From NCBI GenBank assembly GCA_026387175.1, contig JAPLME010000008.1:149883-213882 (forward strand): a stretch of 64,000 nucleotides of DNA, written 5' to 3'. Below the pieces are notes generated by a model. The model did not search any database. It was given only the letters and a program-made list of their open reading frames with translations, and was not told the origin of the DNA. Positions 246 through 62,220 of this stretch are shown piece by piece. The stretch's first letter is position 1; every line of letters starts with the position of its first letter. The DNA is from Candidatus Omnitrophota bacterium. GTDB taxonomy: Bacteria; Omnitrophota; Gorgyraeia; 2-01-FULL-45-10. Both the position numbers and the translations under genes were made by a program.

Positions 246-1018
246 TAATCGCGGAATGTAAGAATATAAAGAAGAGTTTTCCGATAAAACGCGGTTATCT
301 GCAGGATGAGATTGGCAGGGTGACGGCTGTAGATGGCGTATCGCTCGATATCGGGAAAGGATGTTCTTTCGGCATCGTCGGCGAATCGGGCTCGGGCAAG
401 ACTACGCTCGGCAAGATCATGCTGGGTGTTTTAAAACCTGATTCAGGCGAAGTGAGGGTCTATACCGATAAACTTCAGGTGATATTTCAGGATCCGTACA
501 ATAGTCTCGATCCTAAGATGAAGGTATTCGATATACTTGCGGAAGGACTGATCTTAAAAAAAGAGACTGATCAAATATCAAAGAGGGTAGAGGATATCAT
601 GGACATCATAAAGTTGCCAAAGCCCGCCCTCCATAGATATCCCCACCAGTTTTCCGGCGGTGAACGTCAGAGGATAGCTATAGGAAGAGCTCTCATTACA
701 GAGCCTGAATTCATAGTATGCGATGAGCCTGTATCGAGCCTTGACGTTACGATCCAGCTGCAGATATTAAGGCTGCTTAAAGACGTTCAGAAACGATTTA
801 ATATAACCTACCTATTCATAAGCCATGACCTGCGGGTCGTGCGCTTCATCTGCGACCGCGTTGCCGTCATGAAAGACGGCAAGATTGTAGAAGAGGGAAG
901 CGCCTCCGACATATATTCCCGCCCGGCGCACCCATACACTAAGCTGCTCCTCTCATCCGTTCTCCACATCTACCCCCGAAAAATCTCCTGGGGAAACGTG
1001 GGCGAAAATATCGTATAG
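242..1018 (+). CDS. ABC transporter ATP-binding protein (OppF/DppF-like)
   Basis: Walker A GESGSGKTT, signature FSGGERQRIAIGRAL, Walker B FIVCDEPVSSLD, H-loop SHD. The last codons (GENIV*) coincide with the outer TIR of a Y-type repeat. Confidence 0.85.
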   Translation: MIIAECKNIKKSFPIKRGYLQDEIGRVTAVDGVSLDIGKGCSFGIVGESGSGKTTLGKIMLGVLKPDSGEVRVYTDKLQVIFQDPYNSLDPKMKVFDILAEGLILKKETDQISKRVEDIMDIIKLPKPALHRYPHQFSGGERQRIAIGRALITEPEFIVCDEPVSSLDVTIQLQILRLLKDVQKRFNITYLFISHDLRVVRFICDRVAVMKDGKIVEEGSASDIYSRPAHPYTKLLLSSVLHIYPRKISWGNVGENIV

Positions 1019-1300
1019 GTGATGCCCCAGACGAGATCCTTCAGGCAGCGGAACTTCTGCGGGAAGCCTGGAGCGACTTTCGTAAAATCTTGATACTTCT
1101 AGGCGATATACCAGGACAATGAAACTGCACAATAGCTTTACGCATATGCAGGTTCATTGGCCATCAAGATTTTACAACAGCGAATTTACATGCCTAATGT
1201 AAATTCGCGACAAGCGGAAGGCTTACCGCAGAAGTTTCGCTGCTGTAGGAGAAGCGAAGGGACAGGGCCCGAGGGATGTTTTCGCTCTTGATTAGCGGGG
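1007..1300 (+). repeat. Y-type structured palindromic repeat, copy Y1 (type-1 long variant)
   Basis: Outer TIR GGCGAAAATATC (1007) pairs with GGATGTTTTCGC (~1270). Nested TIR GCAGCGGAACTTCTGCGGGAAGCC (1046) pairs with GGCTTACCGCAGAAGTTTCGCTGC (1220-1243). Internal hairpins GTAAAATCTTGAT...ATCAAGATTTTAC and GCGAATTTACAT-gcct-ATGTAAATTCGC (1180-1208). Near-identical to 24383-24657. Confidence 0.6.
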
Positions 1301-6302: not shown

Positions 6303-6480
6303 GATGGATTTTTTGGCTTCGTCAGATGGCAGAACTTTTTGGCACCTTACTGGAGCGACTTTCTAAAATTTCGATACCTATAGGCGGTACAGGCTTCACC
6401 ATCGAAATTTTAGCAACAGCGAGCGAGGAAGCCTATTCCGAGCGAGCGGCAAGCGGAAGCAGGTGCCAAAAGTGAATGCC
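6303..6480 (+). repeat. Y-type repeat, truncated copy Y4 (short variant)
   Basis: CAGATGGCAGAACTTTTTGGCACC...AAAATTTCGATACCTATAGGCGGTACAGGC...ATCGAAATTTTA...GAGCGAGCGGCAAGCGGAAGCAGGTGCCAAAAGT. Outer arms TTTTGGCACCT/AGGTGCCAAAA are complementary. Homologous to 15625-15780. Confidence 0.5.
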
Positions 6481-6511
6481 ATCACGTTGCAGCCAAAAAA
6501 TCAAACGAGAT

Positions 6512-7971: not shown

Positions 7972-10900
7972 ATGCACTTTAAATCCCTAGAGCTGGTGGG
8001 TTTTAAGTCTTTTGCCGAAAAGACGAAGCTTAATTTTGAGCCGGGCGTTACCGCTGTAGTCGGCCCCAATGGCTGCGGAAAATCCAACATAGCTGACTCT
8101 ATCCGCTGGGTGCTCGGCGAGCAGTCAGCAAAAAGCCTGCGGGCGTCCAATATGCAGGACGTCATCTTCAACGGCACCGACACCAAAGATCCTATCAATT
8201 TTGCCGAAGTATCCTTGACATTTTCCAATGAAAAAAGAACTCTCCCGATAGACTACGATGAAGTCACGATAACCCGCCGCGTATTCCGCTCAGGCGATAG
8301 CGAATATCTTTTAAACAAAACCCCCGTAAGGCTGAAAGACATAGCGGACCTTCTGATGGGAACCGGTATAGGCACGGAGAGCTATTCCATTATCGAGCAG
8401 GGAAAGATGGACCTGATACTCAGCTCGAAGCCGGAGGACAGGCGCTATGTATTCGAAGAGGCCAGCGGCATCACTAAATATAAATCCAAGAAGAAAGAGG
8501 CCCTGCGCAAACTCGAGCAGACCGAGCAGAACCTGCTGCGCATAAATGATATTATAACGGAAGTGAAACGCCAGATAAACTCTATCGAGCGCCAGGCGAA
8601 GAAGGCGGAACGCTATAAGGTCGATTACGAAAAGCTGAAGGATATGGAGGTCAAGCTCACCTGCCGCGAGTACAAGGGCCTGAAGATGCAGGAAGCCACG
8701 TTTACCGTAGAGAATGAAGATACGAAGGCAAGAGAGAGGGACCTTTCCGGTGAAATAAACGCGATCGCCCTGAAGATTTCCGAAGAAAGGCAGGCGCTGA
8801 ACGAGGTAAATAATAAGATTTTGAATTTAAGGAACCGCTCTTCGGAGATCTCGAATTCGCTCGATATGAATAAGCACAAGATCGAAATAGATAAAGAGAG
8901 GATCGAGGAGGCCCGCATATTACAGGAGGGCCTGAACAGAGAGATCAAATCGGCAACCGATAAGATAAATAACGCTAAGGAGCAGGTAGGTAAATTAAAG
9001 ATCGATCTTGACAGGGCGGTATCGGAGAGGGCCCTGAAGCAAAAGACCGTTGAAGAACATGAACTGCTTTTATCGAATATCGCCAGAGAGCTGGAGGAGA
9101 CCGAAGAGAAGGCCAAGGTCTTCAAGATACAGATAGTGGAATTCCTGGCAAAAGAGACACATATAAAGAACGACCTGATAAAGATAGGCGCCGATGTTCA
9201 GAACAGGAAGATGCGTCAGCGGAGGCTCGAGATAGAAAAAGATGAGGTGGGGAAGGAGCTGGAGTCCACTGAGGGAGCCTTGTCGGGTGTGCTGGTGGAA
9301 TTTAAGACCATAGAAGACAAAGTCGTCGGACTCAAGACGGGCCTCGAGGCGAAGAAGCTTGCTAATGAAGAGGTCATATCCGCGATAGAGAATATAGAAT
9401 CGGATATAGCCAGGGAAGAAAACAATAAAGCCGCGACAAGGTCGAAGATCGAAATGCTGGAAGAGAGCCTGAAGACGCACGAGGGATTTAAGAGCGGGGT
9501 GAAGAACCTGCTCATTAAGGCCAATGAAGATAAGGTTTCATTCAGCGGGGTCCTCGGGGTATTGGCGGATATAATAAAAGTCGAAAAAGGTTACGAAGAG
9601 GCTGTAAGTACGCTCCTGGGCGATGACGCTCAGCTGATAATTACGGAAAATGATAATGACATAGTGAGGGCTATCGAATATTTGAAGAACGGCAGGTTTG
9701 GTAAAGCAAGCTTTGTCTCTCTTGAAACATTGAGGAAGGTAAGCCGAAGCGCGGATCTCCGGCTTAACGAAGCTCTCCATAAGCCATTGAGCAGTTTTGT
9801 TCATATAGATGAGCGGCTTAAACCGGTTATTGAATATTTCTTCGTAAATTCTTATCTGATAGAATCTGTAGAAGAAGGCATGAGGAGTTGCGGCGCCAGC
9901 CCCGCGGTATTTGTAACAAAGTCCGGGCACATGTTCGATAATTGCAAGGTTTCGGGCGGAAGCGCGAGCGAAGGCGAAGAGTCGCTGCTGATAGGGCGCA
10001 GACAGAGACTGGATGACCTGAGGAACGAGCTTAGGACCTGTGAAGAGAGAGGCATAGCGCTTGTTGCCGTCAGGGATGAAAAGAAATCGGCCGGCAGGGC
10101 CCTGGAGACCGAGATAGAGTCCACAGATTCCGCGCTAAGGCAGGAAGAGATAAATTACGCCAATGCCAAAACTAAAAAGGACGCTCAGGAAGAAGCGGGC
10201 AGGAAACTCGCGGACGAAATGTTCCTCCTTGGATCGGAGCTGGATGAGGTGAATCAGATCATAAACGATCTCACCGCGAAGGGCACGGCGCTGAATATTG
10301 AGCTGAATAAGATCGAGGTTGAAAAGACCTCGATGCAGGAATTTATAGATCGATCCCAGGCTTTTATACTTGATAAAAAGTCTGAACGGGAGAGGACCGC
10401 GCTGGAGATGGCGACATTGAGAGCCGAGGTCCAATCGCAGGAAAAGGAAGAGGAGAATGTCCGTAATAATCTCAAGTCGCAGGAAGCCATAGTTTTCGAA
10501 CTCGAGGATACATTATATGCCAAGGACGCCTTAGCGAAGGAATCGAGCGAGAAAGCTAAGTCTCTGGAATGCGAGATAGGTAATCTGACCAGCCAGAACC
10601 AGATATTAGAAAATGACCTAAAGATCCTTAATGAGGAATCCTCCGCCGTAGAGGGCTCGAGGGCCGATATCGGGGCGAGGCTCAATATGGACGAGACGCA
10701 GTTGAAAGAAAAAGAGGCGCAGCTGGAGACCTTCCGTAACCTTATAAGGGATCTTGACGTAAAATTGACAGAGCTTAATTTCAAGAAGTCGAATTTAAAG
10801 GACAGGATGCTTCAGGCGCACAAGTTCGACCTTGAGATGACACCTGTGGAACTTGATGAGCAGATAGACTGGGAATCGATAAGCGTGCAGGTCTCGGAGC

Positions 10901-13304: not shown

Positions 13305-13308
13305 GAAG

Positions 13309-13445
13309 GGGTCTTCGGGGTGGGGTGACCTGCATTGGCGGGAATTCCCCGGCCGGCGGTAAAGCCCGCGAGTCCCTGTGTCCGAGGGGCAGAACTTGTG
13401 AGATTCAAGTGCCGACAGTACAGACTGGATGGTAGAAGACGCCTC
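13309..13445 (+). ncRNA. FMN riboswitch (RFN element) aptamer
   Basis: Conserved RFN blocks are present: CTTCGGGGTGGGGTGA...GGGAATTCC...GGCGGTAAAGCCCGCGAG...CCGAGGGGCAGA...GAGATTCAAGTGCCGACAGTACAGACTGGATGGTAGAAGA. It sits in the ribBA leader. Confidence 0.85.
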
Positions 13446-14802: not shown

Positions 14803-15267
14803 ATGGTAAATGTGATAAAGGCGGATTTGGTTGCAAAGGGGAAGAAGTTCGCGATAACCATATCGCGGTTCAACGAGTTTATATCATCGAAGCTTCTTGA
14901 GGGATGCATCGACACACTTAATCGTCATGGTGTCCAGGAGAATTCGATAGATGTGGTGTGGGTGCCGGGGGCATTCGAAATACCGATGATCGCGCAAAAG
15001 TGCGCGAAGTCAAAAAAGTACGACGCGGTTATATGCCTAGGTACGGTCATAAGAGGCGCGACGCCTCATTTTGAGTTTGTGGCGAGCGAGGCCGCCAAAG
15101 GTGTCGCGAAGATATCGCTCGATACTAATGTGCCGTGCATATTCGGCATCATCACAGCCGATAATATCGAGCAGGCGATCGAGAGGGCTGGCACGAAGGA
15201 CGGCAACAAGGGCCGCGACGCGGCGCTCTCGGCCATCGAGATGGCTAATCTGTACGCGAAGCTATAG
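14803..15267 (+). CDS. ribH: 6,7-dimethyl-8-ribityllumazine synthase
   Basis: 154 aa with the lumazine synthase signature VPGAFEIP. Confidence 0.9.
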
Positions 15268-15850
15268 ATTTTTCGGCTGCAAGCGATAGTCTAGAGCCTT
15301 CGGGCACTTGCTTTCGCTTGTTGCGGTTTATCCCTCGCGGGGCGGTGCTTCGCAGGGACGCGAAATTTCCCCTGCGAGGAAATTTCGCTCGGAAAGATCG
15401 CTCGCTCTTTTTGGCATACAGGTATACCAGGGCCAAAAATCCGTGCCCGCTCGCGACTTTCGACGCCCTGCTTAGCACCGCCCCCGCGAGGGATAACTGA
15501 GTAACGAAGAAGATAGTGCCCAAAAGCTCCCTGCACTATGCAAGGAGCCGAAAAAATTACTGGGGGTAGTGAGCAGAGAGTGAGATTGTAACAGTGAACG
15601 GAGGCGAAAATATCCTTCAGTACGTCAGATGGCGGAACTTTTGGGCGATGCTGAAGCGACTTTATAAAATTTCGATACCTATAGGCGGTACAGGCTTTAT
15701 CATCGAAATTTTATCAAGAGCGAGCGAGGAAGCCTATTCCGAGCGAGCGGCAAGCGGAAGCATTGACCGAAAGTAAACGCCGGACTGAGATGTTTCTAGG
15801 ATATTTTCGCTGTAGTGAGGATATTTTCAGTGCGAACCATAACTTCGGTT
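15268..15850 (+). repeat. composite structured repeat: X-type palindrome (X1, ~15268-15570), linker, Y-type element (Y3, ~15603-15850)
   Basis: X1 has an 18-29 bp TIR GGTTTATCCCTCGCGGGGCGGTGC/GCACCGCCCCCGCGAGGGATAAC around the core palindrome GCGAAATTTCC-cctgcga-GGAAATTTCGC. Y3 has outer TIR GGCGAAAATATCC (15603) pairing with GGATATTTTCGC (15810) and a nested hairpin AAAATTTCGATA...TATCGAAATTTT. Homologous to 24094-24657. Confidence 0.6.
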
Positions 15851-23202: not shown

Positions 23203-24089
23203 AGACATTAGTGGATGAATTTTTAAATTATCTTACGGTCGAAAGGGGCCTTAGCAAGAATACTATATCCGCTTACGGGACGGATCTCAATCATTTTACG
23301 GAGCATCTCGGGGCGCATGGTATCAGCGATCCCGATCATGTGAAGAGGCAGGATATCATGGATTATATGCTGAAGCTCAAAGACAACAAGATATCGAGCA
23401 ATTCCATATCCAGGGCGCTTGTGGCGATAAAGATGTTCTATAAATTCCTGGTGAGGGAACGATTGGCAAAAGACGATGTCGCCGGAGTCCTGGAATCGCC
23501 AAAACTTGTACGGCCCTTACCCAATGTCATGGGAATGCAGGAGGTTGAAAAACTGTTGGCCGCCCCCGACGTGCGGGGATGGATGGGTATAAGGGACAGG
23601 GCGGCGCTTGAACTCATGTACGCGACCGGGATGAGAGTTTCGGAGCTTGTCGATCTCACTATGGATGGCCTGAATTTAGACGTGGGATTTATAAAATGCC
23701 GGGGGAAAGGTGATAAGGAACGCATTGTGCCTATCGGCAAAAGCGCGAAGGAAGCGATCGAGAGGTATCTCGATAAAGTACGTCCGAAACTCCAGAAGAA
23801 GGACGCCCAGGACCAGCACCTCTTTTTGTCAAGGCTCGGCAAGAAGGTCTCGAGGGTATCGTTCTGGAAGATGATAAAAACAAATGTGAAGCTTGCCCGC
23901 ATAAAGAAAGATGTGACGCCGCATACTCTCAGGCACTCATTTGCTACGCACTTATTGGAGCGCGGGGCGGATCTGCGCGTCGTCCAGGAGATGCTTGGAC
24001 ATGCGGATATATCGACGACTCAGGTATATACGCATATAAATAAAGAGCGGCTGAAGTTAATACACAGGCAATTTCATCCGCGGGCGTAA
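23199..24089 (+). CDS. tyrosine recombinase XerC/XerD family
   Basis: 296 aa. N-terminal SAM-like domain and C-terminal catalytic RHSFATHLL...LGHADISTTQVYTHI (R-H-R-Y). Confidence 0.8.
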   Translation: MKTLVDEFLNYLTVERGLSKNTISAYGTDLNHFTEHLGAHGISDPDHVKRQDIMDYMLKLKDNKISSNSISRALVAIKMFYKFLVRERLAKDDVAGVLESPKLVRPLPNVMGMQEVEKLLAAPDVRGWMGIRDRAALELMYATGMRVSELVDLTMDGLNLDVGFIKCRGKGDKERIVPIGKSAKEAIERYLDKVRPKLQKKDAQDQHLFLSRLGKKVSRVSFWKMIKTNVKLARIKKDVTPHTLRHSFATHLLERGADLRVVQEMLGHADISTTQVYTHINKERLKLIHRQFHPRA

Positions 24090-24093
24090 ATTT

Positions 24094-24657
24094 TTCGGAT
24101 TCTATAGTTTGTCCCTTGCGTGTGGGTGCTTCGCGGGGACGCGAAATTTCCCCTGCGAGGAAATTTCGCTCGGAAAGATCGCTCGCTCTTTTTGGCAAGT
24201 AAGCGTACCAGGGCCAAAAATCCATGCCCGCTCGCGACTTTCGACGCCCCGCTCAACACCCACACGCAAGGGACTGCTGAGTAGTCCGAAAAATTTACTG
24301 ACAGGGTGAGTAGAGAGTGAGATTGGGATGGTGAGCGGAGGCGAAAATATCGCATGATGGATGGCGCCCCAGGTGATATCCTCAGGCAGCGGAACTTCTG
24401 CGGGAAGCCTGGAGCGACTTTCGTAAAATCTTGATACCTATAGGCGATATACCAGGACAATGAAACTGCGCGACAGTTTTTTACGTATAGGCAGGTTCAT
24501 TGGCCATCAAGATTTTACAACAGCGAATTTACATGCCTAATGTAAATCTGCGACAAGCGGAAGGCTTACCGCAGAAGTTTCGATGCTGTAGGAGAAATGA
24601 AGGGGGCGAGCCCCTGAGGATATTTTCGCCGTAGTGAGGATAGACGTAACTTCGGAA
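24094..24657 (+). repeat. composite structured repeat: X-type palindrome (X2, ~24094-24300), linker, Y-type element (Y2, ~24344-24657)
   Basis: X2 has an 18-bp perfect TIR GTCCCTTGCGTGTGGGTG (24111) pairing with CACCCACACGCAAGGGAC (24257) around the same core as X1. Y2 is near-identical to Y1 (1044-1250). Confidence 0.6.
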
Positions 24658-24676: not shown

Positions 24677-24877
24677 GTGATGTGGTATTTAATAGGCGTC
24701 ATAGCGATAGCCCTGGTTGGCTTCTTTTTGTATGCGAACGCGAAGAAGAATAAGCGGGATGCGGAAAAAGCCAAGGCGGGAGATAAGCCGCCTTTCCGTA
24801 CGGAGGAAAAGCTGAGCTCATACAACAAGCCGATGGATAATCAGCACTCGCATGTAGACTTTGATGACGCGGAGTAG
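24677..24877 (+). CDS. hypothetical small membrane protein (66 aa)
   Basis: Strong RBS AAGGAGGTG 5-8 nt upstream. One TM helix (LIGVIAIALVGFFLY) then a charged tail. Start is GTG 24677 or ATG 24680. Confidence 0.4.
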   Translation: MMWYLIGVIAIALVGFFLYANAKKNKRDAEKAKAGDKPPFRTEEKLSSYNKPMDNQHSHVDFDDAE

Positions 24878-41667: not shown

Positions 41668-41823
41668 GGTAAAATCCAAATTTTGACAGAGCAAAATTTG
41701 GATACGAAGTTGACTTCAAAATCCAAAATTTTCTCTGTAAAATTTCGGACCAACAAGTTCAGGGTATGGCTGGTTCTTCGCGTATGCCTGAGCAAGCTGT
41801 AAAGAAGCAAAAAATAAAATCCA

Positions 41824-43452: not shown

Positions 43453-43478
43453 TCGGTAACAGCGGACGAATAATAGAT

Positions 43479-43515
43479 AAGGGGCCGTGATAATTGTCAC
43501 GGCCCCTTATTTTAT
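43479..43515. terminator. bidirectional intrinsic terminator between convergent rpsA and the 43512-44039 gene
   Basis: AAGGGGCCGTGA-taat-TGTCACGGCCCCTT with flanking A/T runs. Confidence 0.5.
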
Positions 43516-61930: not shown

Positions 61931-62220
61931 GTGAAAATATTCCTGGTGGATATATCTGATGGCGGAACTTTCGGCTCGATGCTGGAATAATTGCAGTCAT
62001 TTTACGGGTGACGCAAGATCCAGCCTTGAGGGGCGCAGCGTAGGATGGGTTCAATATAGCTACCCGCCTGGATGGACTGATATTGTAAACCCTACGCAAG
62101 CACCGAAAGGCGATCTTGCGGCAGGACCCGTAAAATGATGCTGTTCAGCGGAAGCATTGACCGAAAGTAAACGCCGGACTGAAGATTCCGATATAATATT
62201 TTCGCCGTAGTGAGGAACTA
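61931..62220 (+). repeat. Y-type structured repeat, copy Y5 (variant with nested hairpins)
   Basis: Outer TIR GGTGAAAATATTCC pairs with AATATTTTCGCC. Nested TIR GGCGGAACTTTCGGCTC pairs with GACCGAAAGTAAACGCC. Inner hairpins TCATTTTACGGGT...ACCCGTAAAATGA, CGCAAGATC...GATCTTGCG and GCGTAGGATGGGTT...AACCCTACGC. 3' tail GTAGTGAGGA. Confidence 0.55.

Follow-up and report, generated by a model that had tools for sequence, protein, structure and literature searches.

X and Y, two hairpin modules of a probable nested palindromic intergenic repeat family in Candidatus Omnitrophota

Candidatus Omnitrophota are uncultured, ultra-small and probably host-dependent bacteria, and a stretch of one of their contigs (JAPLME010000008.1; its 64 kb are referred to here as the window) carries two kinds of large hairpin module, X and Y, in the spacers between its genes. 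There are two copies of X and five of Y, making seven modules, all of them intergenic and on the plus strand, as are 51 of the 58 long open reading frames (ORFs), and the spacers that bear them are five of the twelve gaps longer than 60 nt. At two spacers, ribH-nusB and xerD-small ORF, X is followed across a linker by Y, and further Y copies stand alone at 1007, 6303 and 61931. The initial annotation of this DNA had described both repeats and both X-linker-Y loci, and these are real, with coordinates essentially right; short and long variants of Y and the solo copies are also as it claimed. Its gene names hold for ribH, nusB and the small ORF, with ribH assigned through PF00885 in the syntenic locus L041 (L-numbers label the comparison loci, which are metagenome contigs and related genomes). 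The gene which it called xerC, 5' of the second composite, codes for a tyrosine recombinase of the XerD type, the annotation that it has in related metagenome-assembled genomes (MAGs). In the homologue tables every NusB and XerD homologue is from Omnitrophota. The repeats fold, covary and are modular, they vary by lineage-specific insertion or deletion and they turn over very fast; we think it probable, with considerable room for doubt, that Candidatus Omnitrophota carry a multi-copy family of nested palindromic intergenic repeats, to which X and Y belong as two types of module.

Modules, frame and position

Each element has two layers, an outer A/T-rich closing stem and an inner core, and the composites follow a two-hairpin framework that runs from a stop codon through a ATTTTTCG...CGAAAAAT hairpin, a spacer and a GGCGAAAATATC...GATATTTTCGCC hairpin to a GTAGTGAGG tail (Table 1). 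The closing stems are always made of TTTTCG/CGAAAA words, yet are different among loci and genomes, and the cores within them are exchangeable, position 1 taking X, inverted Y and others, and position 2 taking Y-short, Y-long and others. The recurring unit is not X plus Y, as was first thought, but this two-hairpin framework, into which X, inverted Y, inverted X and other cores are set. In every composite hairpin 1 is X or inverted Y and hairpin 2 is Y or inverted X, and the pair looks like two units in inverse orientation.

The X and Y cores are each three-way junctions of about 150-220 nt, within whole hairpins of 200-300 nt, and are built to one plan, which combines an outer stem with a long arm, variable at its tip, and a short, perfectly paired hairpin. 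Over 154 nt of the X core the two window copies (15326-15479 and 24107-24260; family D1) share 90% identity. The core consists of an outer helix, an invariant 11-bp hairpin GCGAAATTTCC-loop-GGAAATTTCGC, the invariance of this helix being an artefact of the pattern used for collecting copies, and a long arm with a tip of varying length, which in L029 and L036 has one additional hairpin. A conserved internal loop of the long arm sets TCGCTC opposite CCATGCCCGCTC. In Y the outer helix and the long arm with its variable tip are accompanied by a 12-bp hairpin with loop GCCTAAT, the junction strands GGAGCGACTTT and CAAGCGGAAG are conserved, the termini read GGCGGAACTT...AAGTAAACGCC, and the long and short variants are those with and without a GGACAATGAAACTGC...GCAGGTTCATTGGCC domain at the tip. 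The Y-core pattern gives 4 matches where shuffles lead one to expect 0.00. A 10-nt motif, GCGACTTTCG, is common to X and Y, and each module has a consistent composition skew, X being C-rich and Y purine-rich on the plus strand. The fifth Y copy keeps the outer stems and junction motifs and has an interior unrelated to Y. That interior (61990-62140; TTTTACGGGTGACGC...GCGGCAGGACCCGTAAAA) is a separate hairpin module family, here nested in Y outer stems, and it stands alone within a ATTTTTCGGG...CCCGAAAAAT frame in L031 (~1440-1640) and in L033, downstream of X.

Between the two window composites the linker stretch is conserved over 46 nt at 87% identity (15569-15614 and 24306-24351; family D8), so that the conservation first claimed for it stands and its limits, then put at 15568-15615 and 24306-24356, were slightly off. 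The final 12 nt of the stretch (GGCGAAAATATC) are the 5' closing arm of Y. Within the 342 kb examined the linker core motif AGAGAGTGAGATTG is confined to the two window loci and to L019, the orthologous locus of a close relative. It is restricted to this lineage, the corresponding spacers of L027 and L026 being unrelated, and the proposal that a conserved linker is a general part of the composite does not survive. The linker is also not merely a part of Y, as had rightly been supposed, since solo Y lacks it, and solo X does too. At the other end the tail motif GTAGTGAG has 5 matches against 0.86 expected, four of the five directly 3' of an X or Y hairpin. A divergent promoter in the linker was considered and discarded, neither linker having a sigma-70-like site. 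A promoter or terminator consensus is absent from the linkers and from the flanks of the modules, and on the relevant strand terminators are no more frequent than by chance.

A further motif, CTAACCAGGTTAGAAT(A/T)GCCAGGTT, is a palindrome around CCAGGTTAG and is recurrent in several spacers, at ~9005-9030 of L041, at 9884-9910 of L044 (a ribH-nusB spacer that is otherwise empty), at ~385-415 of L022 and downstream of X in L029. Possibly it belongs to the same system, as a small unit resembling a repetitive extragenic palindrome (REP).

The elements either start at the upstream gene's stop codon or overlap it. From a tally of junctions around 11 independent genes abut an element and all of them stop with TAA or TAG, against a background in which TGA accounts for 35%, and TA...TA surrounds the first hairpin in about 8 of the 11 cases. 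Such flanks fit a TA target, and would equally fit a 2-bp extension of the palindrome since TA is self-complementary. X is co-directional with its upstream gene in 12 cases and antisense in 2 (p = 0.013), with 2 more copies between divergent genes. Because most copies run with the upstream gene they would be transcribed within operon mRNAs.

Table 1. Features of the X and Y elements in the window
Feature	Coordinates	Strand	Basis and remarks
Y1, solo, long variant; core 1041-1245; 5' arm overlaps the last codons of ORF 242-1018	1001-1285	+	161.8 bits
Y2, solo, short variant; core 6322-6484; distinct closing stem GGATTTTTTGGCT...AGCCAAAAAATC	6303-6505	+	160.5 bits
ribH stop TAG (15265-15267), then 5' closing arm ATTTTTCGGC	15265-15277	+	Same junction at orthologous L019 and L041
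X1; extra outer stem module (15278-15325, 15491-15546) around X core 15326-15490	15278-15546	+	Covariance model, 149.9 bits
3' closing arm GCCGAAAAAAT (15547-15557) and linker	15547-15602	+	Sequence; D8 family
Hairpin 2 at ribH-nusB: arm GGCGAAAATATCC, Y3 core (short, 15625-15785), arm GGATATTTTCGC, tail TGTAGTGAGGATA	15603-15823	+	166.8 bits
xerD stop TAA (24087-24089), then hairpin 1 5' closing arm ATTTTTCGG	24087-24098	+	Sequence
X2 core, three-way-junction module	24107-24271	+	Covariance model R1, 146.5 bits, E = 9e-39; covariation
Hairpin 1 3' closing arm CCGAAAAAT	24286-24294	+	Pairs with 24090-24098 in the minimum free energy fold
Linker TTACTGACAGG GTGAGTAGAGAGTGAGATTGGGATGGTGAGCGGAG	24295-24339	+	87% identical to 15569-15602; lineage-restricted motif
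Hairpin 2 5' closing arm GGCGAAAATATC	24340-24351	+	Pairs with 24618-24630
Y4 core, long variant, three-way-junction module	24382-24588	+	Covariance model R2, 154.9 bits, E = 4e-32; covariation
Hairpin 2 3' closing arm GGATATTTTCGCC and tail GTAGTGAGGATA	24618-24642	+	D6 family; Y3 and Y5 have the same tail
Small ORF, 65 aa, conserved, downstream of the composite	24680-24877	+	Orthologues called in L043, L048, L051 and L052 directly after xerD
Y5, solo; core 61955-62179, then GTAGTGAGGAAC tail	61931-62218	+	Covariance model, 31 bits, E = 1.5e-4

Adjacency and turnover across genomes

With about 57 gene junctions in the window, the chance that both X copies fall in Y-bearing spacers is (5/57)(4/56) = 0.6%, before order or orientation is counted. 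X then Y, with order and orientation unchanged, is also found in three unrelated metagenome contigs (L022, L026 and L027), and the initial annotation was right in holding that the juxtaposition is not a matter of chance. Outside the window lineage the spacers between the two (21 nt in L027, ~150 nt in L026) are unrelated to the linker. Among non-redundant copies with enough flank, Y comes after about 5 of 16 X copies and X before about 5 of 20 Y copies. X can stand without Y, as it does at most of the metagenome loci, and about three quarters of Y copies are without X. The two are mostly solo, yet adjacent far beyond chance.

It could be argued that the window composites are one local segmental duplication, or a gene conversion between two spacers, and nothing more general, since similarity runs through the X core (90%), the linker (87%) and both Y arms with the tail (96%), and the linker is restricted to the window lineage. 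This we regard as very improbable, because X precedes Y across unrelated spacers in L022, L026 and L027, the framework is found with other cores in L019, L031, L041 and L043, and the window copies themselves differ by whole modules (the extra outer stem of X1; Y-short against Y-long). As a complete explanation duplication is contradicted, and it can still account only for how the shared linker arose.

The exchange of cores is seen directly at the orthologous ribH-nusB spacers. In L019 both closing stems and the linker motif are kept and the cores are different, hairpin 1 being an inverted Y-short that is 97% identical to the window Y3 core and hairpin 2 a Y-long, and in L041, where NusB is 84% identical, the same two closing stems surround two further, unrelated cores. 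The modularity that had been proposed from the window is thus borne out by cores swapped within conserved closing stems at an orthologous locus. Elsewhere the framework holds an inverted Y-long and another core upstream of tRNA-Pro in L043, and X and the Y5-interior module in L031. In both, a ATTTTTCG-type hairpin is followed by a spacer with purine-rich GGGAGCGGGG or GAGTGAGG at its end, then by another closed hairpin and lastly by a tail. The second ribH-nusB core of L041 (...AATATGAGCACATTGAAAATATTAGGT...AAAAAGGGTTATAT.TAATAACGTTTTTAAT; ~9040-9120) recurs after xerD in a sister MAG (L050, ~9090-9170), and so is yet another repeated module family.

Gain or loss of whole elements can be followed between very close relatives. 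L041 and L042 encode the same NusB protein and their flanks share 98.7% identity over 6.4 kb and 97.8% over 1.5 kb, yet the ribH-nusB spacer is 652 nt with two filled hairpins in L041 as against 103 nt with a small unrelated hairpin in L042; in L044 and L045 this spacer is 126 nt without an element. Between xerD and the small ORF the window has ~590 nt, as against 52-85 nt in four related lineages (63 nt in L048/L049, where XerD is 93% identical, 85 in L051, 54 in L043 and 52 in L052/L053), and in L041 and L050 other elements fill the site. Sites that are empty in the window can in turn be filled elsewhere: the 33 nt that follow the small ORF in the window have as their counterpart in L052 a full Y-long, and near tRNA-Pro an inverted Y is present in L043 and absent from the window. 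With orthologous spacers filled in some genomes and empty in close relatives, the mobile or recombinogenic behaviour that the initial annotation suggested is upheld.

Details of the empty xerD sites bear on what is gained or lost. The nearest of them, L048, reads TAA followed by ATTTTTTGGCCC..., that is TAA and then ATTTTTTGG, the 5' arm being already there, and the 52-nt spacer of L052 reads TTTTTCG-TTAGT-TAGTGAGATATT, an arm and then the tail directly. The arm at the empty site could be native flank or a footprint, and the two junctions might be what a loss has left behind or what precedes a gain. At this locus the boundaries can be placed no more closely than immediately 3' of ATTTTTYGG for the left one and 5' of AGACG for the right one. 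A clean target-site duplication was looked for and none was found, empty and filled spacers differing by replacement and not by simple insertion.

In 106 kb of relatives picked by synteny and not for repeat content there are no copies of X and four of Y. Covariance models find an inverted X pair in L025 (7914-8059 and 8075-8225) and three X-like units within 13 kb of L037 (1105-1252, 3329-3478 and 7075-7225), all of which BLAST and nhmmer had missed, so that the diversity of X exceeds what sequence searches suggested. In the genome collection the Y-core pattern matches 3 Candidatus Omnitrophota MAGs, mostly at contig ends (e.g. JBAYFK01), and all six of the contigs shown with an exact XerD stop ~70 nt into X; contig ends of this kind are how high-copy repeats behave in short-read assembly. 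Most of the Omnitrophota contigs carrying nusB or xerD are shorter than 3 kb, which fits with repeats or insertion sequence (IS) copies in adjacent spacers breaking assemblies across the phylum.

The sole IS seen is an IS30-family element that sits in Y, without flanking Y ends. The 3' end of its transposase gene (NF033563, E = 2.8e-9) and ~20 nt of IS end abut Y upstream of nusB at three junctions from two different species (L043 1-122, L046 1-165 and L047 1-83), and the break, between GGAGCGAC and TTTCG, is at an identical internal position of Y, inside the motif GCGACTTTCG shared with X. By reading, the IS ends are 95% identical and the adjoining Y remnants only ~70% alike, pointing to recent arrival of the IS in Y copies that were already diverged. 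The IS30-family element may target the Y repeat, and Y could conceivably serve as its dedicated landing site. A search with the 50-aa C-terminus gave no candidates for a full copy, and tblastn on all loci gave only the three truncated ones. IS30 is not listed among the families that target REPs (PMC1525189).

Fold, strand and the RNA alternative

Both composites fold at z = -7.8 against shuffled sequence. In the X alignment 96.5% of cells are paired and double changes occur in 17 of 36 pairs, compared with 8.5 +/- 1.4 in column shuffles (0/500 reach the observed value) and at most 9 when partners are slid; in the Y alignment 96.0% of cells are paired, with double changes in 16 of 29 pairs against 9.8 +/- 1.6 in shuffles (again 0/500) and at most 6 with slid partners. 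The unpaired motifs of X and Y are conserved as well. Fold energy is lower on the minus strand for X in 18 of 18 copies and on the plus strand for Y in 12 of 13, with strand z-score differences of 1.1 for X and 0.06 for Y, and shuffles attribute about half of the strand preference to base composition. For this reason strand-specific folding is rejected as proof of an RNA product and is treated as suggestive. Coding potential of Y was rejected by inspection, a short frame being open in Y1 and Y4 and a different one in Y3.

Read on the minus strand X has the same helix order and topology as Y, and the reverse complement of X (rcX) has one 11-mer in common with Y-short. That X is an inverted homologue of Y is not established by this, as the local alignment score is 35 against a shuffled maximum of 38, and the cross-matches of X and Y covariance models, although in the predicted orientation, have E = 0.35-1.1, which is within the range of generic hairpins. 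That X is the inverse counterpart of Y is suggested by shared topology, the cross-matches being non-significant.

In the main rival to the repeat-family reading, X and Y are dedicated structured non-coding RNAs (ncRNAs), or cis-acting RNAs with a ligand or protein partner, their copies reflecting function and their pairing a two-domain RNA or a divergent gene pair. Large structured ncRNAs of unknown function, such as the candidates of Weinberg et al. in Rfam, were reportedly discovered by comparative genomics and occur mainly in uncultured bacteria, and X and Y resemble them in their multi-stem junctions, covarying helices, conserved junction nucleotides and variable tips, and in coming from uncultured bacteria. 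The sequence-invariant unpaired stretches (TCGCTC and CCATGCCCGCTC in X; GGAGCGACTTT, CAAGCGGAAG and GCCTAAT in Y) among covarying stems with variable tips are what such an RNA would have. They are kept across lineages in which NusB is only 70-90% identical, each module has its consistent composition skew, and nusB is closely preceded by a Y unit in the window, L019, L043 and L046. Nevertheless there are many copies per genome, the neighbours are unrelated housekeeping genes, neither modules nor linker offer a promoter or terminator consensus, the folding strand preference is about half composition with the small z differences given above, and no Rfam 15 family matches even at E <= 10. Whole modules are moreover swapped, inverted or missing at orthologous sites, even at 98-99% genome identity, which is hard to reconcile with a locus-specific function. 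On balance we hold the ncRNA explanation to be unlikely, although it is to be taken seriously.

Scanned against Rfam 15, the whole window yields just an FMN riboswitch and tRNA-Pro above the gathering thresholds. At the looser limit of E <= 10, applied to both composites, whatever falls on X or Y is a chance hairpin match to a miRNA or snoRNA. Phage records and plasmids contain nothing that matches the composite, viral contigs nothing that matches the core patterns of X and Y, and the literature searched holds no account of such elements, or of non-coding DNA, in Omnitrophota. The FMN riboswitch (RF00050, 90.1 bits, 13307-13444) is an ordinary one upstream of ribBA-ribH, and confirms a riboflavin operon that is interrupted before nusB by the first composite. 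Two perfect hairpins of 12-14 bp in short spacers, ATCCAAATTTTG-loop-CAAAATTTGGAT at 41674-41703 and ATAAGGGGCCGTGA-loop-TCACGGCCCCTTAT at 43477-43510, are unrelated to X and Y; the second lies between convergent genes and resembles a bidirectional terminator.

Likeness to known repeats and possible routes of spread

The closest analogues of the Omnitrophota modules are REPs and the bacterial interspersed mosaic elements (BIMEs) that they form, followed by miniature inverted-repeat transposable elements (MITEs) of the ERIC/Correia type. REPs are short (20-40 nt) imperfect palindromes with GTAG 5' of the hairpin foot (PMC3333891). They belong to E. coli and other Proteobacteria, come in types y, z1 and z2 and in inverse pairs across linkers, of which the L linker of BIME-1 is well conserved, and are intergenic, high-copy, often placed after stops, variable among strains and targets of insertion sequences (PMC3333891, PMC1525189). 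X and Y are alike in having several unit types (X, Y and others), in high intergenic copy number after stops, in a foot motif and in being an IS target; inverse pairs are found in L025 (X) and in L019 and L043 (inverted Y beside Y), and content varies between strains, with the spacer of 652 as against 103 nt at 98-99% identity. The Omnitrophota units are not filed as REPs, however, as they are branched, 150-220 nt long and nested in separate A/T-rich closing stems, their GTAG-bearing GTAGTGAG is 3' of the hairpin on its strand and not 5', and the phylum is different.

A further explanation takes the modules as single-stranded DNA (ssDNA) elements of the REP/RAYT or IS200/IS605 kind, where an HUH (Y1) transposase acting in trans would read the hairpin and its foot motif GTAGTGAG and cut and rejoin copies into a mosaic. 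TnpA-REP of E. coli needs GTAG and a stem mismatch, and cleaves and recombines at iREP and linker sites (PMC3333891), and here the enrichment of GTAGTGAG directly after hairpins, the inverse-oriented unit pairs across linkers, the conserved mismatches in imperfect stems and the differing content among loci are all in keeping with such an enzyme. The units are, though, branched and 5-10 times the length of a REP, GTAG is on the other side of the hairpin, and X and Y of one composite fold best on opposite strands (in part through composition), a misfit with a single lagging-strand template. A Y1-type transposase (RAYT) gene was not seen in the comparison loci, and would be a single gene elsewhere in the genome. 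It seems improbable that ssDNA transposition of this kind explains the elements.

The likeness to other interspersed repeats is looser. ERIC/IRU sequences of Enterobacteria and Correia/NEMIS of Neisseria are transcribed MITE-like imperfect palindromes of 100-160 nt, simple hairpins with conserved terminal inverted repeats, whose RNA hairpins affect mRNA processing and stability; Correia elements insert at TA, and ERIC size variants arise from internal insertions at fixed sites. X and Y are likewise palindromes in intergenic regions with internal size variants, and like MITEs they are present or absent at orthologous sites. They differ in having variable termini around a branched interior that is conserved and covarying, with several unrelated cores sharing one kind of closing stem, and so the classical MITE arrangement is not theirs. 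BOX elements of Streptococcus pneumoniae are linear modules of 45-59 bp in the order A-Bn-C, with a stable secondary structure possible, and the initial annotation had called the window repeats BOX-like. As a loose analogy this can be kept (modular interspersed repeats from few sub-units, in fixed order with a variable middle), and REP/BIME is closer, with its palindromic units, inverse orientation, linkers and variable loci. The Omnitrophota elements differ in being large autonomous hairpins that are nested or inversely paired, in a different phylum, and show no boxA-boxB(n)-boxC order and no evident sequence similarity.

Returning to the repeat-family reading, which we favour, the A/T-rich closing stem would begin at the TAA or TAG of the upstream gene with the modules embedded within it, and X-linker-Y would be a hairpin pair across a spacer, X first and Y second, that in the window genome was apparently copied, linker included, to at least two spacers. 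The modules would spread as non-autonomous DNA elements, and two routes may be envisaged. One is TA-targeted transposition, with the TA supplied by TAA and TAG stops, and the other is recombination or gene conversion between copies via their near-identical self-complementary closing stems, which would also account for core swapping and inversion. The cores may have moved by TA transposition, by arm recombination or by an HUH-type ssDNA enzyme. The neighbouring tyrosine recombinase was considered as mobiliser and discarded, since it is a housekeeping XerD, syntenic, and present at filled and empty spacers alike. By analogy with REP/BIME, ERIC and Correia elements, long hairpins directly after a stop codon would serve as 3' barriers or as sites of processing, and would determine how stable neighbouring cistrons are relative to one another.

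Several observations weigh against the family reading. No transposase with ends matching the elements was found in the comparison loci, nor a clean empty and filled pair with target-site duplication, and the 5' arm ATTTTTYGG is in the nearest empty site, which a simple terminal-inverted-repeat element would not lead one to expect. The interior is conserved and the closing-stem ends are variable, the reverse of a classical MITE and nearer to a functional RNA. Orientation is not significantly biased for Y (14 versus 7, p = 0.19), and the framework loci L027 and L029/L030 are antisense to both neighbours. A role at the RNA level would itself be drawn by analogy, and templated intrastrand repair can keep the complementarity of a DNA palindrome without selection on the fold.

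A more far-reaching idea is that these are a new class of selfish, structure-defined elements, branched ssRNA or ssDNA folds of ~150-220 nt that enter, or are copied between, pre-existing A/T-rich hairpin sites right after stops, that have no terminal inverted repeats of their own, and whose fold is selected via a trans-acting factor, giving invertible and exchangeable Russian-doll hairpins. We put it forward as a speculation with little probability at present.

Overall the size, the branching and the plan of a conserved frame with exchangeable cores exceed what is described for REP/BIME, ERIC, Correia and BOX. The elements offer a strain-typing marker and an explanation for the fragmentation of MAGs in Omnitrophota, and they lend themselves to testing whether selection on the fold or the mechanics of repeat propagation lies behind the covariation of multi-copy palindromes. 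If transcribed, they would add a widespread level of post-transcriptional control, situated exactly at stop codons.

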